Assembly: GCA_964016885.1 (NCBI GenBank)
Contig: OZ024742.1
Span: forward strand, 17,980,001-18,044,000
Length of the DNA: 64,000 nt
Direction of reading: 5' to 3'
Origin: Eledone cirrhosa
Taxonomy: Eukaryota
Shown: one piece after another, positions 7,059-56,559 of the stretch
How the letters are laid out: every line of letters begins with the position of its first letter
Position numbering within the stretch: the stretch's first letter is position 1
Program-made: the position numbers and the translations under genes
The notes under the pieces: model-generated
Told to the model about the DNA's origin: nothing
Database searches by the model: none
The model's input: only the letters and a program-made list of their open reading frames with translations

Positions 7059-7160
7059 AGGAACAAGTATACTTGTTCCTATTACCCACTCTTTTACCCT
7101 AAGTATTGAGTACTTTGGTGCGTTATGGTCCATCTGGTTCCTTACCACAATTCCTTCGTT
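7059..7160 (+). mobile_element. Penelope-like 3' tail cassette with 11-bp fold-back head
   Basis: AGGAACAAGTA|TACTTGTTCCT then the same tail that follows the HHR at 12946-13041. Confidence 0.7.
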
Positions 7161-12718: not shown

Positions 12719-12852
12719 ATTATATTGTGTTGTTTATTATATAATTAAATAGCTCTGTACTATACATAGAGCACTCTTCTTTCCTTTACCTTTTCTACGG
12801 AAATACATAACACATAACACACACACACGCACATATACACACATATATATAT

Positions 12853-13720
12853 AACGAAGGAAATGTGGTAAGGAACCAGATGGACCATAACACACCAAAG
12901 TACTCAATACTTAGGGTAGTAGAGTGGGTAATAGGAACGAGTAGGACCCCGACGGCTGAGCTCAAGCCGTTTCGACGGCTAATTCTGGACTAAATGAAAA
13001 TGTTTATCCTGGTACATGAATAGCCGAGCTTCTCAGGGGGTAATTCCATATATGGTAAAAGTGATTGTCACAAGGATTGGTCAAAAGTTTGTTGTTGAGA
13101 CACATAATTCTATCATGGCATTTTGTGGAAGGAAGGGGTAGCTGAACTTGCCAGTAGAAGAAAGAGGGAGAGGGAGTGGAGGAAACCCAGTCGTGCGTTG
13201 ATAGTGCCAACTAGAGCAGGATCCTAAGGATAAGAGGTCAAGAGAAGTATACTAGGGATAGGGAGGGGGAGGAAGTCGAAACAATAAGTAAATCAATATG
13301 GAGTAAATATATAGAAGAATAATAAGAATGTTAAAAATATAAAAAAAACAATTTCTGGTTACTATTCCCCTACCACAATCATCAAATCTCTCACTGGTAC
13401 AGCTAAACTATAGAAAAGTTTAATAGGTGGGACGGAATACTAAATACGAGATTGTAGTGAAAGAATTTTATGAGTTAGTAGTAATCGTCCAAATCTATCT
13501 TACAGTGACAGGTCAACAAGTATGGGACCAAAATACTAAAGAAACTACTACGAAATAATAATTCAGAGTCCCGAAACTAATACGAAATAATAATTCAGAA
13601 TCCCGAAAATGAATACTAATACGATATATAAGAGTGCCGCTACGATACATAAATTATAATACAAACTACATAAATGCTCGTACGATATATATGAAAAATT
13701 TAATACGAAAAATTAATTCA
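12853..13720 (-). mobile_element. Penelope-like element 3' region (non-coding) with HHR
   Basis: Homologous to 31545-32292 (+); ends in (TA)n. Confidence 0.7.
12946..13041 (-). ncRNA. Hammerhead-like ribozyme with non-canonical CUGAGAA core
   Basis: ACCCC-CTGAGAA-G..CGGCTA...TAGCCG.C-GAAA-CGGC(loop)GCCG-TC-GGGGT. Confidence 0.7.
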
Positions 13721-14100
13721 TTCTTTCTGTTTCAACAGAAAGAATGAATGGAATAACAACAACACCCAAACAAACAACACTGACCTAAGAGAAGTATAAA
13801 TAAAATAAATAAATAAATAGATAAATAAATAAATAAATAGATAAATAAATAAATAAATAAATACACAAGCACAATAACAACAAACACATTTAAACACACA
13901 CTAGTAAAGATAGAATACATTAACCGATACACAGTCACCCAATCACGAACACACATCAAACAAAACACTATACACACACGCAAACGCATGCGCAAAGAAG
14001 ACAACATAAAATAAACAAACAAACAAATAAATAAATAAATATATAAACAGACTAAATAAAAATGGCGTAGACATACAATGTAACGGGAGGAAACAATAGC

Positions 14101-14141
14101 ACCACTGACGTGCTGCAGATGTGCAACGAAAGAACTTTGAT
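14101..14141 (+). ncRNA. Decayed hammerhead motif
   Basis: CTGACGT-GCTGCA/TGCAAC-GAAA-GAAC-TT-TGA; same GAAAGAACTTTGA as 26562-26604; A9 mutated. Confidence 0.45.
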
Positions 14142-14342
14142 AAACTATATATATGTGTTTGTGTCTATATTGTATCTGTATTATTTTTGACCGTCGGTCA
14201 GTCAATGGCAACATTGAGGACCGAATAAATTAGATTACCGATATAAAAGACACAGAAGCGAAAAGCGAAAACCAACCAAACAGTGAGTGTGTTCTGTTAT
14301 TAATTCTGGCAATATTACACAAATATGACCCTCCCCAAGTAT

Positions 14343-14408
<66 letters not shown>

Positions 14409-14514
14409 TATATATATGAAGTAATTCCGTCGGAAAAGTCCAGGAAAAAAGAGTGCTCTATGTAAGCAACAGAGCTTAATTATTATTATGTAATAAACAA
14501 CATAAGGCAATTAT

Positions 14515-14572
14515 TCCATTTACCAGTGGTTTCTTAAAAGCAAAAGGTTTTGCTTTCAATCCTCAGAACGAA
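14515..14572 (-). ncRNA. Type I hammerhead ribozyme
   Basis: TTCGTT-CTGAGGA-TTGAAAGCAAAA/TTTTGCTTTTAA-GAAA-CCACTGG-TA-AATGGA; same downstream tail as 12645-12718. Confidence 0.8.
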
Positions 14573-14707
14573 AAAATCCTGGTTTGTTTATTGAATTTGG
14601 ATCTTAAAAACAAAAAAAGCAAGCTATATGAAAGTGAGGCTGGAGAAGGAAGAAGGAAAGGAAAAAATAAAAACAAAATAAGACTACCCATACAACCACA
14701 CATACAC

Positions 14708-14770
<63 letters not shown>

Positions 14771-15221
14771 TGTGTATGCGCGCACGCACGCGTATACAAA
14801 TATAAATATATTTCCCCCATACACATGTGTGTGCGTGCATGCGCGCATACGCGCAGGGTATGTTCTGTTGAAAGTGTCTCGTGAATTTATGGCTACAGTT
14901 GTATAGATTATACTTAGAAATTGTCCACAGAATTCCCTAAACCTTCGTCAATATACTAGAACCTTTAAGAATTTAGCTTTTAAGGAATCTCCCCTTCCTC
15001 CAAATCTATCTACCATGACTGATCCCATACTGATCTTACAGACACCTGTAAGCCAAAGAGAAAGCTAATGATCAGGATTGGCTCCAATCTGAATACAGAA
15101 ATCTGAATACAGAAATCTGAATACAGAAATCGGCAGACAGATTATATATATACAGTATATACAGTATATATACAGTATATATATACAGTATATATACAAT
15201 ATATATATATATATATATACA

Positions 15222-15257
<36 letters not shown>

Positions 15258-15288
15258 GTATATATATGTATATATATATATATATGCA

Positions 15289-15472
<184 letters not shown>

Positions 15473-15533
15473 GTATATAGTATATATATATATATATATA
15501 TATAGTATATATATATATATATATATATATACA

Positions 15534-15573
<40 letters not shown>

Positions 15574-15602
15574 TGATTCCTGATGATTACAGTATATATA
15601 CA

Positions 15603-15640
<38 letters not shown>

Positions 15641-15641
15641 G

Positions 15642-15690
15642 GATTCCTGATGATTTCTAATGAATGAAACAGTTCTAGTCCTGTAGAATC
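15642..15690 (+). ncRNA. Type I hammerhead ribozyme
   Basis: GATTC-CTGATGA-TTTC(TAAT)GAAT-GAAA-CAG(loop)CTG-TA-GAATC. Confidence 0.8.
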
Positions 15691-15773
15691 TCATCTATAT
15701 TAAAACTATATATATATATATATATACTGAGGTTGCCAGTTTAGTCGCCAACGACCCGACCATGAGACAGGTT

Positions 15774-15816
<43 letters not shown>

Positions 15817-15821
<5 letters not shown>

Positions 15822-16382
15822 AACCTGTCTCATGGTCGGGTCGTTGGCGACTAAACTGGCAACCTCACCAAGGTTTCTTGGTGAGGAAAATGACTTTGGA
15901 CATCATGCAGGACTAAAAACAAAACCTGTCAAAGGGCAAAGGAGCTCTTAAGAGTCAATAGCCATCCAAAATCACTGGGAGAGATGACCCCTTAGCCTTT
16001 GTCAAGGCAGAATTCTAGGAGAAAGAAAACTCTGATATAGCACCTGCAAGACTGATGGTATCCAATGATGTTGACTTGTTCTTCTTTTTGGTAAATATCA
16101 TCTTGGTTAAGAGAGTGGGACTGGCTTTGTGCAGTGCTTTTGCTCACTATAAAAGCTTCACGGCACAGGCATTGCTTTATATCTGGAGATCTCTCTGCAC
16201 TTGTCGTCACATGGTACCATGGGCCCAGTACTATGTGTCAATAATTGTCACAAGTGTAGTGTTTGTACCAGAGTGTTCAAGTCGCTGGCTGGACTAAAAA
16301 GTCACACTCGTTCAGCGCATCAGTAGGGTTCTCCTACATGGATATAAAGTAGTGGCCGTACTCGAAAACGAGTTGGCAGCCA

Positions 16383-16386
<4 letters not shown>
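15817..16386 (+). mobile_element. RTE-related non-autonomous element (subfamily A), 5' truncated
   Basis: Matches 45651-46259 and 59860-60467; first 51 bp mirrored at 15728-15778. Confidence 0.75.
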
Positions 16387-16424
<38 letters not shown>

Positions 16425-16675
16425 GAAACGTATAGAAGTTGTTTTAGCGAGAAGTTAATAGTATTCTATAACATATATGCGACTATGTCGTCAAGATGGG
16501 AAAAGTAGTTAACGTAAGATTTATGAAAAATAATTCAAACTCATCTCAAAAGAGAATCAGGATACAAATTCATCCACAGAATTTAGTGAAATCCAGGGAA
16601 AAATCAATAGACCTTTAACTCATGATAAAATAAAGTTTAAAACACTTATCCTTCAATTTGGAATAACATCAAATG

Positions 16676-16754
16676 CTCTGTATAGTCTTAAAAGACTATT
16701 TCATGAAAACTTTCAGTGGAGATGGTCACGGTTGGATTTCAATCGTCAGCAGAG
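16676..16754 (-). ncRNA. Type I hammerhead ribozyme
   Basis: CTCTG-CTGACGA-...-GAAA-TAGTCTTTTAAGACTA-TA-CAGAG; lies in a 16420-16870 element homologous to 18170-18595. Confidence 0.8.
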
Positions 16755-16959
16755 CTCACCAGATAACCAGGGCTACCACAGTATTATAAGCCGAAAAGGG
16801 AATTCTAAAACTGGCTAGTTCGCCATCATGCGTGATTATGAAAACGCACATGAGGAAAAACGGGGCTAGTGACTATATATATATACAGTATATATATATA
16901 TACAGTATATATATATGTACAGTATATATATATATATATATAGTGTATATATATATACA

Positions 16960-17053
<94 letters not shown>

Positions 17054-17178
17054 TATATATATATATATATATACAGTATATATATATATATATATACAGT
17101 ATATATATATACAGTATTTATATATATATATATATATTCAGTATATATATATATATACAGTATATATATATATATTCA

Positions 17179-17234
<56 letters not shown>

Positions 17235-17553
17235 GGGACTTGGAGACTATAGCCGAATGCTATCATTCTATTATACAACGATGTGAGACTGCTATTTCTA
17301 ATAACCAATTTTTCACTATCTTATTAATTTGTGTTTGAGACACGTTGGCTGAGAGCTTATGACGGGAGCAGAACTATTTGATTTCTAATCTCCTGCCATC
17401 ACGTAAATTAACAAATCGGTGGCCAGTCGGGAGACAGCATTATATCAGATCCCAGTTGCTAATCCCGTTACTGTTTCGGCCGTCACAAGCAGTCATAGCC
17501 GGCATGGACTGGAGTCGAATTCTGTCGATCTATTGGTTATTGATTTGGCGATA

Positions 17554-17664
17554 CACGCTGATGAAGCCACATGCGCCGATTATGCTTTGTTGCATAATAT
17601 ATGCAGACATATGGTGCAGTGTACCCTACTGCTGCATTAAGTGTGGCCGAAACTCGAGTTCGGG
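17554..17664 (+). ncRNA. Hammerhead candidate with large branched stem II
   Basis: CTGATGA-AGCCACA...TGTGGCC-GAAA-CTCGAG-TT; palindromic stem III, weak stem I. Confidence 0.55.
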
Positions 17665-18137
17665 AACTACTATAGGTACCCGTTTACGTGTGTTGTATTG
17701 AAGCGAATAACTATGTGTATACTCTGGGAGTGTATTTTACATTGCCTATTGAGTAGGCTGAGATGTAACCGGTCCTAGCAGTGATACCTATGCTGGTTCC
17801 GTCAACTTCTTATTATATATATATATGTATATGTATATATATGTGTGCGTGTGTGTGGGGGGGGGGGTGTATTGAAAAGATAACAAGGACGATTGGTTAC
17901 TCCTTCATTACATTTATTGGTAGGTGACGCGCGTTTCGCCACTGATCAGCTCAAGGTTCGATCTGTATCGATCTTACCCGACTCTATAATCCAAAGCTCG
18001 ACGGACCCTTTAAAATGCTAGTAGAAAAACTCTGTATAGCTCTACACCTCGACACGGACGTGAACCTAAACATCGAGTGCTCACCCGGGTGAACCTACAG
18101 TAACTCCAAGTTACACTCCCTAGATATATATATATAC

Positions 18138-18168
<31 letters not shown>

Positions 18169-18266
18169 CGTTTATTTTCATAATTACGCATGAGGGGATC
18201 TAGCCTGCTTTTAAATTCCCTTTTTGGCATATTCTAACAGTGGTTCTTAAGGTTATCGTGTTTGAG

Positions 18267-18344
18267 CTCTACTGATGAACGATTCCAACCGTGATCATCC
18301 CCACTGAAAGTTTCGTGAAATAGTCTTTTTAAGACTATACAGAG
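18267..18344 (+). ncRNA. Type I hammerhead ribozyme
   Basis: CTCTA-CTGATGA-ACGA...TCGT-GAAA-TAGTCTTTTTAAGACTA-TA-CAGAG. Confidence 0.75.
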
Positions 18345-18590
18345 TATTTGTAGTTTTTCCAAATTGAAGGATGAGTATTTAAAATTTATTTTATTCAGAG
18401 TTAAGGCTCTATTGATTTTTCCCTGGATTTCACAAAATCTGTGGATAAATCTGTATTGATTTTTTTTTTTAATTGAGTCTGAATTATTTTCCCACATCTT
18501 ACGTTAATTACTTTTCCATTTTGACGTTATAGTCACTTATATATTATGAAATACTGTTGGCTTCATGCTCACAATAATTTCTATACTTTC

Positions 18591-18684
<94 letters not shown>

Positions 18685-19333
18685 ATTTAGTGATTTAATC
18701 CTGGTATGTATATAAGCATTTCTAACTTTAATTTTTACCTAATTATGTATGGTTGACCCTATATTTAATTAATTTCCACGTGCTGTTGAAATGTTGGGTA
18801 AATATTCTATAGCGGTTGGCCGCGAAGACGCTGCTGTGGCGTATTTATTTACTGTTTCTTCATAGGAGCCTTTTATTCTTATATCTCAAAATTATTTTTG
18901 AAAAGCAAAAGAAATGTGCAACCGGTAAAAACTTAAAACTAAAACTGAATTCTAACTAATACTTATTACTAATTTATACTTATTCCTAATTAAACTATTT
19001 TTCACTGGGAAAAATTTGTCAGCATTTTCTTTTCCTTTTTACTAATATATCACAACTCGTGTGTCACACCTCTATTTTTTTAAAATATATATATATATAT
19101 ATATGACACTCATTCATTACTAAGCGATGTTTAGTCAAATCTCGCGTGTAAGCGTTATTTGTGAAAAACACAAACCATGTTACGTTACACAAATGAACGT
19201 GCCATTGTGTTAACATTCTGTAAGTATATTATACTTGTATTTGATCAGGAGAACAGTAATTACAGAATATGGACTTCCATACATTTTACTTCTTTGCAGA
19301 TTATCATCACATTGAATAATGGTTTCTTATATT

Positions 19334-19445
19334 TCACAAGGCCAGCAATTTTGGAGGAGGGGAAAGTCGATTAAATCGACTCCAGTTTGTGACTGGTACT
19401 TTATTTTATTGACCCTGTGAGGATGAGAGGCAAAGTTAACCTGGA
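19334..19445 (-). mobile_element. SINE 3' fragment (variant tail)
   Basis: CACAAGGCCAGCAATT...GTCGATTAAATCGAC...GGCAAAGTTAACCT. Confidence 0.7.
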
Positions 19446-19850
19446 TTGAATAATGCTAAACAATAATGCTAAACATTAATAATGCTAAACATTAATACTT
19501 TTCGCACTTCTCTTTATATCTCTCTCACATTTGCTTTTGGAACTTTCTGTGTCGTTTATTTCTGTAATTTACTTATTTTCGTATGTCTACCTGGTAATAA
19601 CACTATTATACTTCAAACCTAAAAGTTTATTTCTTGAAGAGATTTTTGAAATGTAATTGCTATGGTTGTCGATTTAATTAATTAATTCATTCATTCATTA
19701 ATCAATTTGTTAATCTGCAAATTCTTACATATGTTTACAATTGCAGTTCAATAAATCGAAACGATCGGAGAAGTGAATAAATTGGTTTGAACTCTATAAA
19801 AACTTGCCTTATTCACCTAAATTGTATAATATATACATGATGTACATACA

Positions 19851-20388
19851 TGATCATTGCTGCCCCCTCGTTATCGAGTATGGCCATTGCACGATATACC
19901 ATTATTAATAATTATTAATTAATTCTATCGTGCAATGCCTGTGCGTGAAGATATTTTTTAAAGTGAGGAAAGTCTGTGCACTGACCCAATCCCACTCTCT
20001 AAGCGACAGTAGCTATAACCCGAAAAGAAGAAAAGATCAACATCATCGGTAACTACTGAGCCGCAGGTTTTATATCGGAGTTATCCCAGTTTCCTGAGTT
20101 GCCTTCTCCTAGAAGAATGCCCTGATCAAGGCTAGGGGTCCTTCACTCCCAGTGGTTTAACCTCGCGGTACATGTGTATATACATATTTACACACTTTCG
20201 GATGGCCGTTGACTCTTATGAGTTCTTCCGCCCTTTGTCAGGTTTTGTTTTTTGTCCTGCAGACTGTCCAAAATCACCCTCCTCACCAAGTAAACTTGGT
20301 GGGGTTGCCGGTTTAGTCGCCGACGACCTGACCATGCGACAGGTTGTTCTGGGTTATATGTTACCAGTAGCACTCAAGAGTGACCCGA
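19851..20388 (-). mobile_element. RTE-related non-autonomous element (subfamily B)
   Basis: Reverse complement of 60947-61536; bordered by (CATA)n. Confidence 0.8.
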
Positions 20389-20445
20389 CATACATACATA
20401 CATACATACATACATACATACATACATACATACATACATACATAC

Positions 20446-20490
20446 ATGATGGCTGCCCTCTCGTTATCGAGTATGGCCATTGCACGAGAA
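20446..20490 (-). mobile_element. RTE-type 3' terminus
   Basis: TCGTGCAATGGCCATACTCGATAACGAGAGGGCAGCCATCAT then (TATG)n on the minus strand. Confidence 0.65.
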
Positions 20491-20535
20491 GAAAAAAAAA
20501 ATTTTAAATAAAAATAAAAATAAATAAATAAATAA

Positions 20536-20592
<57 letters not shown>

Positions 20593-20799
20593 GCCCCGGC
20601 ACCACCACCGACATAGCCAGCAGCAATAACAGCCAACTACAACAAAAAGTATATTATATTATTGTAATGCACTGGGTGATTGCTGGCCTTGTGCCTGGAG
20701 TGGAGACAATTATTAATAATTTCATTCTTAAGCCACGCAATGCTCACATTAAGGAACCACTCATGATAATAACAATTTAAAAAAAACAACAAAAAGAAA

Positions 20800-23700
20800 A
20801 CCCCGTGACCAAGAAATACCGGGATGGCGGCCGGCGGGGAATAGCCATGTCTCTAGGGGAGAACGACCCCTCTAGTCTTGGTTGACATTCGTTGTAGAAG
20901 TGGTAACACGAAATGATTACCCCTTGGCGGATAAGGATAAAACGCGACAAAATAAAGTAGATGTCTAATGATGAAATCTCATACCGGATCGGCCGTCACC
21001 CGGGTAAAAAAGGGCCGCGTCCCTCAGAGAGGAACCAGACTGGGGTCGAAAAATCAGCTAATGGTTCAAACCTTTCCATCACTTCGGAGCTGGAGACCTC
21101 CCATAACCGGAATACTCCTACTGTTGGCCCTCCATGCTCACCACCAAGAAATCCAAAGAAAAAGAGAGAAAAATGGTCAAGGGAAGATAATAAAGAAGTC
21201 CTTGAGGCTTTCTACACTGCCATGTACTACCCATCAAATACATCGAATACAGAACAAACATATATCAACTGGAAAAAGAAACATCCCGAAAACAGAGGCT
21301 ATATTGACAGTAACAAACTAGCCAATATACGAAGAAATATTGTAAGAAAAAAGTTACTAACTGATATAGAAATTGATCAGATCAAGCTAGTAGCACAAAG
21401 TCAGCGAAGGGAAAATGAAGCATGTGTCAGTGAAAACGAGGTAAACTGTAACACTTCGAATCCCAGGGTTGGGGCGGAATCACTGGCAACAGAACAAATT
21501 AAAGAAAGGAGCGAAAAAGTGGAGGGAGTGCATGCTCAGGATGAAACTCCAAATGAAAATAATGAGATCGTAAATGATAAAGAAATGAATGAGAATGAAC
21601 TTGCCAACTTGAAGGATGAAATTATGATCGAATGGATGAAAATGAAAGAATCTGACATGGGGCAACGAGACACCGTCCCTAAGATCCAGAACTCCAAACA
21701 GAACCAAAAGATAATACACAAGACTAACATAATTCTCAAAAACATTATCATCACAAACAAACTAAACATTACTGACTTAAATCATCTCTATTATGCATCG
21801 GCTAAAGTCACCACTCACTTATGTGGAGTGAAGATGAAAAAACAAAGGAATTCCCACAAGAAATCTACTTGGCAAGATAACATCAATCGCCAAATAAACC
21901 TTCTCCGATCTGACATAGAAATTTTAACAAACTATAAAGTAGGTGAACATGTTAAACAAACTAAACTTAGAAAATTGAAAAAAAAGTACAGTATAAGATC
22001 AACATGTGACATAGACATGCTGATAGAAACAATCAAGCAAAAAGTGTCGGCCAAAGCTGCTCGTATAAGGCGCTTTGAAAAACGATCTAGATTCTATAAG
22101 GACAATAATATGTTCAAAAACAACCAAAGAAACTTCTACAGAAAAATTGGTAAGTCAACAATAACTGCTAAATCAATACCACCCAAGGAGGAAGTGCAAG
22201 AATTCTGGGAAAAGATCTGGGCCGAAGAAAAAGTTCATAACATACATGCCCCATGGATAGACAGACAAATGAAAGAAACAGCTCACCTTGAAGAACAAAC
22301 ATGGGAAAATATAACAGTTGAACAGCTGCGCTTGGCTCTAAGAAAAACCAGCAAATGGAAATCCCCGGGAAAAGACAAAATACAAAACTTTTGGATAAAT
22401 GCCTTCACAGCTGTTAGCCCAACTTTACAATTAAATAGTTAAGGAGCCAGAAAAGATACCATCATGGCTAGTTAACGGCATTACATTCCTGATACCGAAG
22501 AATGATGAGACAAACAATCCCAAAAATTACAGACCGATAACCTGCTTGACCACAATGTATAAAATTTTAACATCAGTCCTAACTGAATACACATATGACC
22601 ACCTGATAACAAATGACCTATTTCCCATTGAGCAGAAAAGGGTGTAAACGAGGCTCATATGGCTGTAAGGATCAGCTTCTGGTTAACAAAATGATACTGG
22701 AAGATTGTCATAATAGACACAAAAATCTATCGATTGCTTGGATAGATTATAAAAAAGCATTTGATAGTTTGCCACACAGTTGGATTGAAAAATGTTTAGA
22801 GATTTTCAAAATATCCCCCGTTGTCAGGAGGTTTTTGTCATTCAGTATGAGGACATGGAGAACGACACTCCTTTTGAATAGTGAAACAAAATCACTGGAA
22901 GCTGGAGAAGTTAACATTAATTGTGGAATTTTTCAGGGTGACTCTTTATCACCGCTTTTATTCTGCATCGCACTTATACCATTAAGTAAAATGCTCAATG
23001 AAACAAAACATGGATATAGAGTCTATGACAAAACCATTAATCACCTGTTCTACATGGATGACCTGAAACTATTTGCAAAAAATGATGAACAATTGCAAGG
23101 GCTATTATCCACTGTGAAGCAGTTCAGTGATGACATTAAAATGGAGTTTGGACTGGATAAATGCGCCAAAGCAACGTTCACCAGAGGAAAGCTGCTGAAG
23201 AGTTCAGACATTAATCTTGATCGGGGGAACGTGATAAGAGAGCTTGATCAAGAAAAAACTTACAAATATCTAGGTGTTTGTGAAGGAGACGGAATCAAGC
23301 ACTCGACAATGAGGGAAAGGATAAGGAAGGAATGTTACCGCAGAGTCAGAGCAATCTTAAGAACGGAATTGAATGCAAGGAATAGGATCGATGCCATAAA
23401 CACGCATGCCATACCAGTAGTAACCTACAGTTACAATGTCATCAACTGGTCAAGCACAGAGATCCGTAGGCTCGATACAAAAATCCGAAAATTCTTAACC
23501 ATGCACAGAATGCATCACCCTAAGGCAGACATAGATAGAATATATCTCCCTAGGAAAGAAGGAGGACGTGGGTTAATCCAGTTAGACATTGCGTTGAAAA
23601 CTGCAACAATTGGATTATCCACATATCTAAGGGAATCACATGATTGGATGATCAAACTCGTTTTGAAACACGAAAGCACCAAAAGATCATATTCCATTAC

Positions 23701-24741
23701 AAAAGATGCACAAAGATACAGTAATGGACTACAAATTTCAGAAGTCCCATTTACTGCTGAAATGGAAAACACAGAAAAAGCAAAGCAGGTAAAAGTAACT
23801 GCAAAGAAAGAACTGCTATAGAAACTGGCTAAGAAATGGCAAGAAAAGCCTCTGTATGGAAAATACCCAGAGCGAGCTAACAATCCTGGTGTTGACAAAA
23901 CTTTAACCCATCAGTGGTTGGCATCCTCTGGACTGAAATCGGAGACTGAAGGACTGATTATATCCGCACAAGATCAGTGTCTGCCAACAAAAAATTACCA
24001 AGCCAACATAATAAAAAATGGGTGCAGCCCATTATGCCGTGTATGCAAAAAACAACCAGAGACCATTGACCATGTAATTTCAATGTGCAGTCCTATAGCT
24101 CCAACCGAATACCTAAACAGGCATGACAGAGCTGCACAATACATACATTGGATAATGTGTAAGCATTTTGACCTGCCCCATCAAAAGAATTGGTGGGAGC
24201 ATCAACCACCTCCCATACTTGAAAAAGATCACATCTCAATCTTGTGGAACTTTAGCATCCAAACAGACCGAAAAATAGATGCAAATAGACCTGATATAAT
24301 ATTGAAGGACTTTCAAAGGAGGGTATGCCTGCTAATTGATATGTCTGTTCCAATAGACAAGAATGTATCTATAAAAACATTTGAAAAATTGAGCATGTAT
24401 AAGGACCTGGAGATAGAAATTGGAAAAATGTGGAAATTGAGAACTAAAACAATACCAGTGGTTGTAGGCGCTCTGGGAATGATACCTAAGGGGTCTAACG
24501 ACTACTTATCGCAAATCCCAGGAAACCCGCGTATAGGATAAATACAAAAGATAGTACTAATGGGAACTGCCCATATACTAAGGAAGATCCTGTCAATATA
24601 AGTACATCACAAGTCTAAACACTAAGGATGCATGTGTGAATATGTATGTTCTTTCTTGAACATGGCGGACCTTGTTGTCTCTTGAGGTCACTGGTTGTGA
24701 CTTGGTGATAACTCGTATAAACATAAAGCAAGATAAATGCA
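20800..24741 (+). mobile_element. Near full-length R4/Dong-clade non-LTR retrotransposon
   Basis: Single long ORF with RT and C-terminal CCHC plus RLE; ends in (TAA)n. Confidence 0.9.
20961..24601 (+). pseudogene. R4-clade RT-RLE polyprotein, disrupted
   Basis: [43 protein letters not shown]...HVISMC, RHD, RPDII; frameshifts near 22430 and 22620, stops at 23819 and 24539 (sense codons in the second copy). Confidence 0.9.
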
Positions 24742-27152: not shown

Positions 27153-27195
<43 letters not shown>

Positions 27196-27198
<3 letters not shown>

Positions 27199-27307
27199 CG
27201 GATGAAATGTGGTAAGGAACCAGGTGGACCATAAAGCACCAAAGTACTCAATACTTAGGGTAGTAGAGTGGGTAAGGAACGAGTAGGACCCCGGGGTCCT
27301 ACTCGTT

Positions 27308-27312
<5 letters not shown>
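27196..27312 (-). mobile_element. Penelope-like tail cassette starting at the HHR cleavage site, with fold-back
   Basis: ...GAGTAGGACCCC|GGGGTCCTACTCGTTCCT between two (TA)n tracts. Confidence 0.75.
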
Positions 27313-27364
<52 letters not shown>

Positions 27365-27376
27365 TTAATATAGAAA

Positions 27377-27426
27377 AGCTTCTGCAGGACTGGAACTGCT
27401 TCATTCGTGAGAAATCATCAGGAAAT
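27377..27426 (-). ncRNA. Decayed hammerhead (family of 15642 and 50672)
   Basis: CTGATGA-TTTC(TCAC)GAAT-GAAG-CAG..CTG-CA-GAAGCT; A15.1/U16.1 read as G/C. Confidence 0.5.
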
Positions 27427-27626: not shown

Positions 27627-27673
27627 GTATATATATATATATGTATGTATGTATGTGTATATATATATATATA

Positions 27674-28060
27674 TATTAATAAGAGGAATTCCAACTTTGT
27701 CTGATTTACTCGTTTTATTTACAATCCTTTAAAATTTATAATGGTATTATAATGAAATAGTATGATAGAATATTAAATTCTAAGTGTTAATTGAACAAGC
27801 ACTTTCATGCTTTCGCAATCTTCAGGTTCATAATATGTGGTGACAGTCAAGTTTGCAATTTTCAACTGTTGAAAATTGCAAACTTGACTGTCACCACATA
27901 TTATGAACCTGAAGATTGCGAAAGCATGAAAGTGCTTGTTCAATTAACACTTAGAATTTAATATTCTATCATACTATTTCATTATAATACCATTATAAAT
28001 TTTAAAGGATTGTAAATAAAACGAGTAAATCAGACAAAGTTGGAATTCCTCTTATTAATA
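27674..28060. repeat. Palindrome with 193-bp arms and 1-nt centre (27867), carrying two HHRs
   Basis: Arms read as exact reverse complements. Confidence 0.9.
27904..27942 (+). ncRNA. Minimal hammerhead (mirror copy 27792-27830 on the minus strand)
   Basis: TGAAC-CTGAAGA-TTGC(GAAA)GCAT-GAAA-GTGC-TT-GTTCA. Confidence 0.7.
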
Positions 28061-28100
28061 TAATCTTCTATACACAATCATACACACCCGTGTGTATTTA

Positions 28101-31447: not shown

Positions 31448-32183
31448 TTATATATATGTATATATATATACATACATATATATATATATACATATATATA
31501 CATATATATATACATATATATATATACATATATAAATTTCTTAGTGGTATTTTTGTATTAGTATTCTTGTATTAGTATTTATGTATTAGTATTCTGAATT
31601 AATATTTCGTATTATTCTGAATTAATATTTCGTAATATTTTTGTAGTAGTATTTTATTATGTTTGTTCTCAACTTATTAACCTGTCATTGTAAGATAGCA
31701 TTGATTGATTACTACTAACTATAGCAGTGGTGTTAGACCTCCTGTAAAGCCGGCTTTATAAAATTCTTTCACTACAATCTCGTGTTTAGTACTTTTCTCC
31801 ACCTATTAAACTTTTCTATAGCTTAGCAATACCAATGAGAGATTTGGTGATTGTGGGGATGGAGTAGTAACCAGAAATTGTTTTTTATATATTTATTTCC
31901 TTATGTTTACTCCCTTTCGATTTAACTATTCATTCAACTCTCCCCCCCCCCCTCCCTTTCCCTTCTCCAGTACACTTTTTTCGACCTTCTATACACTATC
32001 CTTAGAATCTGGTGTATAGATTTCACTTTCAACGCTTGACTGGGTTCCCCCACTCCCTCTTTGTTCTACCGGCAAGTTCAGCCACACCTACCTCCCACTA
32101 AATGCCATGATAGAATCATCTGTCTTTATAACAAATTTTTTACCAATCCTTTTGACAATTACTATCTTCCCATATAAGGAATT

Positions 32184-32279
32184 ACCCCCTGAGAAGTTCG
32201 GCTATTTATTTACCAGGCTAAAAATTCTTATTTAGTCCAGAATTAGCCGTCGAAACGGCTTGAGCTCTGCCGTCGGGGT
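32184..32279 (+). ncRNA. Hammerhead-like ribozyme with CUGAGAA core, second copy
   Basis: ACCCC-CTGAGAA-GTTCGGCTA...TAGCCGTC-GAAA-CGGC..GCCG-TC-GGGGT. Confidence 0.7.
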
Positions 32280-32313
32280 CATACTTGTTCCCATATACAT
32301 ATATATATATATA

Positions 32314-32786
32314 TACAATATTAAATAAATGGAAAACTATATTTATAAAACCATATTTATTTCATTATATATATTTCGGGGATATCATATTAACAATATG
32401 CTATGCCTTCATCAGACAAAATACAATATAAACAGTTTTATAGATAAATATATTCGACATACCGTAATAAACATCAACTTCATTTGAAGAGGTTCACTCT
32501 AGCAGTGAAAATACAGAGAGAAAGAAAGAGAGAGAGAAAAGAGGGAAATAAGAAAGAAAGAAAGACGAAACGAAGAAAAGGAAGAAAAAGAAGAAAAAGA
32601 AGAAATGCATGGGACAAAATAGAGAGATGGAAAAATAGATAAAGCGAAGAGCTTCATGTAAAGAGACCGAAAGAGATATATATATATATATAGAGAGAGG
32701 AAATAGAGATAGATACATATATAAATATAGATATAGAAAAATTAGGTAGTGGGAGGTCATTTTGAGTAAGTGTATCAATGATGCAT

Positions 32787-32825
<39 letters not shown>

Positions 32826-33416: not shown

Positions 33417-33451
<35 letters not shown>

Positions 33452-33924
33452 ATGCATCATTGATACACTTACTCAAAATGACCTCCCACTACCTAATTTT
33501 TCTATATCTATATTTATATATGTATCTATCTCTATTTCCTCTCTCTATATATATATATATATCTCTTTCGGTCTCTTTACATGAAGCTCTTCGCTTTATC
33601 TATTTTTCCATCTCTCTATTTTGTCCCATGCATTTCTTCTTTTTCTTCTTTTTCTTCCTTTTCTTCGTTTCGTCTTTCTTTCTTTCTTATTTCCCTCTTT
33701 TCTCTCTCTCTTTCTTTCTCTCTGTATTTTCACTGCTAGAGTGAACCTCTTCAAATGAAGTTGATGTTTATTACGGTATGTCGAATATATTTATCTATAA
33801 AACTGTTTATATTGTATTTTGTCTGATGAAGGCATAGCATATTGTTAATATGATATCCCCGAAATATATATAATGAAATAAATATGGTTTTATAAATATA
33901 GTTTTCCATTTATTTAATATTGTA
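32314..33924. repeat. Inverted repeat with about 525-bp arms (32314-32839 / 33403-33924)
   Basis: Identical 94-aa spurious ORF on opposite strands confirms arm identity. Confidence 0.9.
33815..33880 (+). ncRNA. Type I hammerhead (mirror copy 32358-32423 on the minus strand)
   Basis: TATTTTGT-CTGATGA-[stem II]-GAAA-TATATA-TA-ATGAAATA. Confidence 0.75.
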
Positions 33925-34008
33925 AATATACTCCAAGTATTTGTCGAGTGCTTTTATATCAGTTATAAATATTTACTAGTTGTAACCCAACAATTTTAAA
34001 TATAACTT

Positions 34009-35740: not shown

Positions 35741-36057
35741 TATAAAGAAAAAGAGATGAAATCGAAAATGCAACTGGAGTCTTATTTTTTTTTTTTTTTT
35801 TAAATATATATATTTATTTGGTTCCTTTACCGGTTTCGCAATTCTTCTGCTTTTCAAAAGTAGAGTTGAGATGGAGGTTCTGTGGTTTTTCTCACATCAG
35901 ATGTGAGAAAAACCACAGAACCTCCATCTCAACTCTACTTTTGAAAAGCAGAAGAACTGCGAAACCGGTAAAGGAACCAAATAAATATATATATTTTTAA
36001 AAAAATAAATAAATAAGACTCCAGTTGCATTTTCGATTTCATCTCTTTTTCTTTATA
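35741..36057. repeat. Palindrome with 158-bp arms (centre 35899), carrying two U3-A8 HHRs
   Basis: Near-perfect reverse complement; HHR at 35937-35974 (+) and 35824-35861 (-). Confidence 0.85.
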
Positions 36058-50610: not shown

Positions 50611-50616
<6 letters not shown>

Positions 50617-50736
50617 ATAGAAGGAGCTTCTACAGGACTAGTACTGTTTCATTCAGATGAAATCTTCAGGAAGCTTCCTGAAGATTTCATCTGAATGAAA
50701 CAGTACAAGTCCTGTAGAAGCTCCTTCTATACAATA
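50611..50736. repeat. Spacerless palindrome with 63-bp arms: two back-to-back hammerheads
   Basis: Centre AAG|CTT at 50673/50674; one mismatch. Confidence 0.9.
50672..50722 (+). ncRNA. Type I hammerhead (mirror copy 50625-50675 on the minus strand)
   Basis: AGCTTC-CTGAAGA-TTTC(ATCT)GAAT-GAAA-CAG(loop)CTG-TA-GAAGCT. Confidence 0.8.
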
Positions 50737-54939: not shown

Positions 54940-56528
54940 AGTTGCATTTATCTTGCTTTATGTTCATACGAGTTATCACCAAGTCACAACCAGTGACCTC
55001 AAGAACAATGTTCAAGAAAGAACATACATACACACACATGCATCTTTAGGTGTTTAGACTTGTGATGTACTTATATTGACAGAATCTTCCTTAGTATATG
55101 GGCAGTTCCCATTAGTACTATCTTTTCTATTTCTCCTATACGCGGGTTTCCTGGGATTTGCGATAAGTAATCATTAGACCCCTTAGGTATCATTCCTAGA
55201 GCGCCTACAACCACTGGTATTGTTTTAGTTCTCAATTTCCACATTTTTCCAATTTCTATCTCCAGGTCCTTATACTTGCTCAATTTTTCAAATGTTTTTA
55301 TAGATACATTCTTGTCTATTGGAACGGACATATCAATTAGCAGGCATACCTTCTTTTTAAAGTCCTTCAATATTATATCAGGTCTATTTGCATCTATTTT
55401 TCGGTCTGTTTGGATGCTAAAGTTCCACAAGATTGAGATGTGATCTTTTTCAAGTATGGGAGGTGGTTGATGCTCCCACCAATTCTTTTGATGGGGCAGG
55501 TCAAAATGCTAACACATTATCCAATGTATGTATTGTGCAGCTCTGTCATGCCTGTTTAGGTATTCGGTTGGAGCTATAGGACAGCACATTGAAATTATAT
55601 GGTCAATGGTCTCTGGTTGTTTTTTGCATACACGGCATAATGGGCTGCATCCATTTTTTATTATGTTAGCTTGGTAATTTTTTGTTGGCAGACACTGATC
55701 TTGTGCTGATATAATCAGTCCTTCAGTCTCCGATTTCAGTCCAGAGGATGCCAACCACTGATGGGTTAAAGTTTTGTCAACATCAGGATTGTTAGCTCGC
55801 TCTGGGTATTTTCCATACAGAGGCTTTTCTTGCCATTTCTTAGCCAGTTTCTGTAGCAGTTCTTTCTTTGCAGTTACTTTTACCTGCTTTGCTTTTTCTT
55901 TGTTTTCCATTTCAGCAGTAAATGGGACTTCTGAAATTTGTAGTCCATTACTGTATCTTTGTGCATCTTTTGTAATGGAATATGATCTTTTGATGCTTTC
56001 GTGTTTCAAAACGAGTTTGATCATCCAATCATGTGATTCCCTTAGATATGTAGATAATCCAATTGTTGCAGTTTTCAACGCAATGTCTAACTGGATTAAC
56101 CCACGTCCTCGTTCTTTCCTAGGGAGATATATTCTATCTATATCTGCCTTAGGGTGATGCATTCTGTGCATGGTTAAGAATTTTCGAATTTTTGTATCGA
56201 GCCTACGGGTCTCTGTGCTTGACCAGTTGATGACATTGTAACTGTAGGTTACTACTGGTATGGCAAGCGTGTTTATGGCATCGATCCTATTCCTTGCATT
56301 CAATTCCGTTCTTAAGATTGCTCTTACTCTGCGGTAATATTCCTTCCTTATCCTTTCCCTCATTGTCGAGTGCTTGATTCCGTCTCCTTCACAAACACCT
56401 AGATATTTGTAAGTTTTTTCTTGATCAAGTTCTCTTATCACGTTCCCCCGATCAAGATTAATGTCTGAACTCTTCAGCAGCTTTCTTCTGGTGAACGTTG
56501 CTTTGGCGCATTTATCTAGTCCAAACTC

Positions 56529-56531
<3 letters not shown>
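54940..56531 (-). mobile_element. R4/Dong-clade LINE, 5'-truncated copy of the 20.8-24.7 kb family
   Basis: Near-identical protein from MEFGLDKC to LRKILSI; (TAA)n on both sides. Confidence 0.9.

Positions 56532-56559
<28 letters not shown>

Follow-up and report, generated by a model that had tools for sequence, protein, structure and literature searches.

Why should a short palindromic insert in a (TA)n run begin exactly where a hammerhead ribozyme is predicted to cut its own RNA? The insert lies at 27,198-27,310 of the window, that is, of the whole 64,000-nucleotide stretch of Eledone cirrhosa DNA analyzed here. Positions relative to the predicted cut are numbered so that +1 is the first base after it (GUC/G, the slash marking the cut) and -1 is C17. 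The insert and its surroundings consist of the following parts.

27198-27292, minus strand: long arm (95 bp), the tail of the element from +1 (27292) to the outer priming site beside (TA)n.
27293-27310, plus strand: short inverted arm, from +1 to +18/20, which stops at the inner priming site GTTCC/TATA.
27157-27197, no strand: left part of the (TA)n target, the repeat that flanks the insert.
27310-27360, no strand: right part of the (TA)n target, the repeat that flanks the insert.

Read on the minus strand, the long arm (97 bp if the shared TA is counted) begins with GGGGTCCTACTCG and is 93% identical to 12850-12951. The centre of the palindrome is between 27292 and 27293, with zero spacer and exact 18-bp arms. 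The initial annotation had described an insertion that starts at the predicted hammerhead cut and is mirrored at once inside (TA)n, and both observations hold: the 95-bp arm starts from the first base after GUC, and an exact 18-bp arm follows with no spacer. Its further statement, that no ribozyme base lies upstream, cannot be read from a single copy. The palindrome centre is CG and the first mirrored G also complements C17, so the letters at the junction would be the same whether the arms were joined blunt at +1 or overlapped by 2 nt (CG) at -1. The exact 24-mer palindrome occurs at 16 sites in the 3.0-Gb genome, versus 0 for a control pattern, and the (TA) repeat flanks both sides in 28/30 junction loci of the same style.

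The window contains further copies of the same element, two of them with a hammerhead.

12853-13719, minus strand: longer, 5'-truncated copy with the 3' non-coding part plus the tail; it serves as the natural reference, which was taken as 12855-13730.
12945-13041, minus strand: type I hammerhead motif, with the predicted cut between 12951 and 12950.
7059-7160, plus strand: third copy, with a two-arm layout like that of 27198-27310, joined at +7/+8.
31830-32294, plus strand: diverged copy with a full hammerhead (core 32189-32196, C3-A8; predicted cut after 32274), which stops at the inner priming site.

On the minus strand the longer copy reads GCCGTC/GGGGTCC at the predicted cut, as had been annotated, and the fold of the third copy does lie 7 nt further 3', with its centre between 7069 and 7070. 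The motif at 12945-13041 consists of a 5-bp stem I (ACCCC/GGGGU), a long helix II, GAAA, a stem III with a palindromic loop, and GUC. Hammerheads of Penelope-like elements (PLEs) share the short stem I, the long helix II, and the palindrome in loop III (PMC4209133). In an Rfam scan with 190 matches, none of the 150 that were listed was a hammerhead. In a natural copy with a U3-A8 core (L063), the hammerhead is the minimum-energy fold, with stems I-III around CUGANGA/GAAA and with NUH, as in type I PLE hammerheads; in a second U3 copy (L058) and in the 13-kb window copy, the unconstrained fold is not a hammerhead.

The core of the longer copy, at 13036-13029, is CUGAGAAG, which in the usual register has a C3-A8 mismatch, and both window copies with a hammerhead carry C3-A8. 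In the T-tail subfamilies U3-A8 is found in 10/10 cores, and N7 varies, which fixes the register. The C-tail subfamily, to which the insert itself belongs, has C3-A8 in 4/7 unbiased cores and U3 in 2/7, with the core of the longer copy predominant. U3-A8 is a known active covariation (PMC3088659, PMC4209133). Because of the mismatched C3-A8 core, cleavage of a transcript of 32170-32300 may fail. Lunse 2017 may already deal with such variants of the hammerhead core. In four contig sets, loose ends are found at 12857, 12931, and 12995, and the depth drops upstream of about 12995 in sets X1 and X4; the cut is absent among the 20 loose-end rows listed of 276, and contigs cannot reveal RNA ends.

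The family is large, as one 24-mer of the tail has 19,176 occurrences in the 3.0-Gb genome, so that there are at least that many copies. Longer copies (L023, L013) have, upstream of the shared 3' sequence, a 459-aa frame with YRDD and VIY...YIG, that is, a reverse transcriptase (RT) followed by a C-terminal GIY-YIG endonuclease. A CxC...C linker and His/Cys motifs are visible by eye in the protein frame, the type of Cys linker and a CCHH motif being, with the RT phylogeny, the characters that bear on a Neptune, Nematis, or Hydra clade. Atlas matches of 0.93-0.97 are with HTH_animal/RVT_1/GIY-YIG clusters; a Pfam scan gave no family for either frame. Another copy (L020) runs from the tail to the ORF start MPKHNIDFSTKNIP at about +190 (offset counted by hand). 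An inverted 5' copy and a tail on one end only are also seen, with 67 adjacent inverted arms among 91 anchors. Judged by its predicted protein and its layout, the family is an endonuclease-containing PLE.

A non-LTR retrozyme was considered as well and rejected, since the inserts are solitary and head to head, not tandem units each with a full hammerhead. The sole tandem seen is without the 5' half of the ribozyme. It is a head-to-tail array of 257-bp units at L124 (G000:C1:27008648-27011330), from -44 to just beyond the ORF start, and is suggestive of priming from a third site and of template jumping at the start site. A different PLE (GIY-YIG, CxxC linker) adjoins the studied family at L013 (106-987) and at L008 (1719-2198).

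Other repeats were also observed in the window. At 27672-28061 there is a head-to-head palindrome with 195-bp arms and a 1-nt loop; it represents a second family, in which a minimal motif resembling a hammerhead (CUGAAGA...GAAA) is located near 27909-27935. The joint of this palindrome does not coincide with the cut but precedes the core by about 40 nt. A third family in (TA)n has the minimal hammerhead-like motif CUGAUGA/CUGAAGA...GAAAC and is found at 50613-50736 and 27360-27425, as well as at loci L054, L070, and L436. Several of its joints are just upstream of the core, and one copy is located in the same TA run as the 27198-27310 insert. The near-perfect palindrome at 35803-35995 (57-bp-plus, AT-rich ends) is of similar style. 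A 514-bp inverted repeat with 100% complementarity (32308-32821 and 33417-33930) lies beside the 32-kb copy, and another repeat, at 15751-15844, is present as two tail-to-tail copies around (TA)20. Finally, a LINE-like RT with its frames in pieces (20961-24541) has an inverted partial copy, 98% identical, at 55050-56537.

Where the arms of such inserts end was analyzed in a first unselected set of 90 loci taken in genome order (91 anchors). Beside TA, the arms end at two fixed sites, +18/20 and +96/98. All 67 short arms, which were selected for this range, end at +16 to +23 beside TA, 58 of them at +20; they are tens to hundreds of bases long, yet all end at about +20. At the other side, the 5' stops of 45/67 short arms and 47/91 long arms fall at -34 to -47, and those of 1/67 and 2/91, respectively, at -1 to +2, with the reservation that the x-drop mapping of this set misplaces ends inside stem III. 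A second unselected set (T-tail, 3/90 loci removed as duplicates) has 60/87 arms in -34 to -47, 2 at +1, and 13 scattered over -3 to -31; rows in which the walk halts at -50/-51 on a subfamily indel count here only as "long". In at least 2,173 inserts both arms reach -41. The main stop of the cDNA arms corresponds to the following feature of the longer copy.

12991-12995, minus strand: inferred transcription starts inside loop II (A at -41 is 12991, A at -45 is 12995).

The adenines at -41 and -45 are in initiator-like contexts. The base added to the cDNA after -41 is C in 22 cases versus T in 5 (p 0.0008), the templated base being G in one subfamily and A in others, and some inserts have an extra C/G on both arms. 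An extra G is the mark of capped ends in L1 inserts (PMC11702581), and Penelope is reported to have an internal promoter inside the pLTR (PMC2377424, PMC6765202). The pile-up at -34 to -47 is likely to represent a capped transcription start inside loop II. Transcripts that begin there would not include, at their 5' end, the ribozyme half with CUGA, and this would account for the read-through of the cut by most arms. The importance that the initial annotation implied for the cut is therefore not borne out, as most arms pass it and stop at -34 to -47. Relative to the GUC, the 5' ends do include a sharp class at +1, but the cut is not the main end.

For single arms this class is small. Of 9,330 short arms, 182 depart from the reference at +1 through two mismatches, and 23/30 of those checked are true stops; the matched control at -23, with the same next five bases and the same CpG, gave 93 matches, of which 24/30 are true. 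This amounts to a stop rate of 1.5% of 9,330 arms at +1 versus 0.3-0.5% at -23, where the denominator is estimated (14,000-24,000 arms). The single-arm enrichment at +1 is modest, about 3-5 times the matched control. A control at -7 was unusable, as most of its 67 matches are joints through the stem III palindrome, and two other hammerhead-bearing families in the fetched DNA have 4 and 16 arms, too few for the test. In the two other hammerhead families of the window, neither GGGG nor a stable stem III adjoins the cut.

The two arms of an insert tend to end at the cut together. Among 80 short junctions (the first 80 loci of 236 matches), the short arm ends at +1 in 31 cases and the long arm in 24, versus 5 each over -2 to -9 (p 6e-25 and 8e-19). 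For the other subfamilies, the first 50 of 274 loci were scored by eye, and 12 of the 15 fetched for a check agree. Both arms are at +1 in 38/50 of these loci: 15 with zero gap, 12 with a single A/T, and 11 with other fillers. The remaining loci comprise 10/50 with a GAC/GTC joint, which needs an uncut template on one arm, one longer, and one ambiguous. Junctions carry fillers, mostly of 0-9 nt, A/T-rich and varied, or 2-3 nt overlaps. As the fillers vary among loci, a founder-copy origin of the +1 class was rejected. In the 80 short junctions, the first base of the +1 fillers is A in 11 cases, T in 7, and C in 3; that they start mostly with A/T and not with C is as expected for an uncapped end, and run-off additions of R2 resemble them (PMC3774820). 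In the junction after +1 at L240, a 36-nt filler between two +1 ends holds an inverted piece of the element around the ORF start.

When one arm ends at +1, its partner is also at +1 in 8/19 inserts versus 1/19 for the control at -23 (p 0.019), and it is upstream of the cut in 3/19 versus 13/19 (p 0.0025); 7 and 6 read-throughs and 4 and 5 rows without a mappable partner are excluded from these counts, and L281 was placed by hand. If one arm extends to the start site, its partner stops at +1 in just 3/30 inserts, the rest being scattered over -1 to -14 with no +1 peak (167 loci). Mixed inserts, with one capped-type end and one cut end, also exist. By hand arithmetic, there are about 280 double ends at +1, from about 197/11,405 T-tail and about 86/9,330 C-tail inserts, versus 19-33 for independent stops. 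Because the arms are coupled and the double ends are far above the independent expectation, the +1 end appears to be a property of the template. The coupled class fits an RNA that physically ends at +1, in about 1-2% of inserts. Thus the earlier proposal that the RT copied a self-cleaved RNA to its 5' end is retained for a subset that ends sharply at GUC+1 with both arms together, which is only a minority. According to hand estimates with unequal patterns, double ends make up about 0.9% in the C3-A8 subfamily versus about 1.7% in the U3-A8 subfamilies, and the zero-gap class 0.17% versus about 0.7%. A larger drop would be expected for a dead C3-A8 core, unless the cleavage occurs in trans or in a register without N7, or the source copies have U3.

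We consider it probable that the locus is a two-armed, (TA)n-targeting PLE insert, whose two cDNAs ran off the 5' end of a ribozyme-cut RNA and were joined head to head. The element protein would prime one cDNA on each strand of the TA repeat, and +18/20 and +96/98 would be the internal positions at which the RT starts, each serving one target strand. This assignment follows Frangieh 2024 (PMC11167929), who showed that a PLE protein cuts both target strands and extends them, the tail being delimited by two positions within the RNA at which the RT begins. The ordinary mRNA would begin, capped, in loop II, so that its 5' end would contain just the 3' half of the ribozyme, and it would be copied uncut. 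The +1 ends would be the 3' product of ribozyme cleavage. Both cDNAs would run off the same RNA 5' end, in this insert likely created by hammerhead self-cleavage, gain run-off additions, and be united by end joining or by an RT jump onto the other cDNA end; the template may be one RNA copied twice or two sibling RNAs in a dimer. Going by junction letters, the +1 class is likely to be a trace of in vivo self-cleavage of the RNA. The genomic record of in vivo cleavage seen by the initial annotation would thus be kept, for coupled +1 ends in a minority of inserts and with a joining mechanism different from fold-back. Counting against it, Frangieh 2024 (PMC11167929) saw no RNA-seq ends at the cut and found that cleavage was not needed in vitro.

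Two cDNAs could also have ended at +1 without a ribozyme, if, on uncut RNA, the RT is halted by the base of stem III or by the G run, or if another nuclease trims the RNA to that point. We regard this as improbable. The folded start-site RNA does extend stem III to G(+1), but stalling should produce independent stops on the arms, and these are coupled, with no +1 peak where the partner read through. Persistence of the +1 class in the C3-A8 subfamily and a single-arm enrichment of only 3-5 fold also speak for stalling or trimming; on the other hand, the stop is exactly at the predicted phosphodiester, and the single A/T fillers look like run-off additions, for which R2 is a precedent (PMC3774820).

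The joining of the arms bears on the second alternative. Subfamily letters are common to both arms in 79/79 cases (shuffled mean 42), hence the arms are of the same source, which fits a fold-back or one RNA copied twice. The initial annotation had one cDNA of a self-cleaved RNA turn back on itself, and this would explain the coupled ends and the matching arms directly. Further, in Arkhipova 2013 (PMC3846280), junction palindromes of rotifer Penelope elements are taken as self-priming, on an antisense template. The fold-back nevertheless has little chance of being correct. The arms are separated by 0-1 nt in 27/50 other-subfamily junctions, and a hairpin with so small a loop is unable to self-prime. 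In 27/67 inserts the short arm extends further 5' than the long arm, in 25/67 the reverse holds, and 15/67 are equal, although later asymmetric deletion of palindrome centres could mimic the outreaching short arms. In addition, the short arm ends at about +20 regardless of its length, at a fixed TA junction like a second priming site, and single inserts have the extra C/G on both arms. The arms are likely two separate cDNAs joined head to head, not one folded copy. Still slightly less credible is the collapse of a longer start-site palindrome at this locus, or its joining via a 2-nt CG overlap at -1/+1, with no cleavage. Both readings give the same letters, joints through an overlap occur often, and GAC-type joints make up 10/50, but the equivalent CG / GC overlap centres 3 and 5 nt upstream (-4/-3 and -6/-5) give 0/50 each in the same loci versus 15 (binomial p 7e-8), and filler-bearing double ends (23/50) could not have formed in this way.

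The reading of two cDNAs run off a ribozyme-cut RNA may be extended to the family: the head-to-head repeats would be twin cDNAs of one sense RNA, with the promoter inside the hammerhead and a half-ribozyme mRNA, and a few hundred inserts would be dated germline records of cleavage. We lean slightly toward this wider view. Hammerheads, inverted 5' copies, tails, and a pair of RT start sites have already been described for PLEs, and R2 junctions are known to show ribozyme cuts. In the literature outside subscription journals, we found no report of PLE inserts ending at a hammerhead cut, of cap-marked PLE twin arms, or of transcription that starts within the ribozyme. Such questions are testable from junction statistics in a family of more than 20,000 two-armed inserts. 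If true, the explanation would make the in vivo activity of each ribozyme variant readable from sequence alone, with the natural core variants U3-A8 and C3-A8 as a built-in control, and exact positions are named for 5' RACE and cleavage assays.

The closest relatives are the endonuclease-containing PLEs (Craig 2021, PMC8557442; Arkhipova 2013, PMC3846280), which share the RT with C-terminal GIY-YIG, the pLTR hammerhead, the head-to-head inverted arm, the tail on one end, and the (TA)n target. In contrast to them, most inserts studied here are only about 140 + 60 nt and are bounded by RNA 5' ends, and the tail is about 78 nt, versus 30-40 in those elements. Arkhipova 2013 (PMC3846280) proposed antisense self-priming, whereas the present data favour two sense-templated cDNAs. 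The PAc Poseidon element of Anolis (Frangieh 2024, PMC11167929) shares two internal RT start sites, the cutting and extension of both target strands, a predicted dimer, and an AT-rich target. For PAc no RNA ends were seen at the cut and cleavage was dispensable in vitro, whereas genomic ends pile up at the cut here; the ORF start is before the cut in PAc and about 190 nt after it in the present family.

In L1 twin priming the second primer anneals at variable internal places, and the L1 arms are not known to overlap; here, by contrast, the second site has a fixed position, and one 5' segment is copied by both arms. Features shared with L1 (PMC11702581) are the priming of cDNA by both target ends, the extra G at full-length 5' ends, and microhomology joins. 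Likewise, the HDV-like ribozyme of R2 (PMC3774820) has 5' junctions that reflect the self-cleavage site, with non-templated additions and microhomology. In R2, cleavage makes the normal 5' end, whereas here about 1-4% of arms end at the cut and the normal end is a likely capped start.
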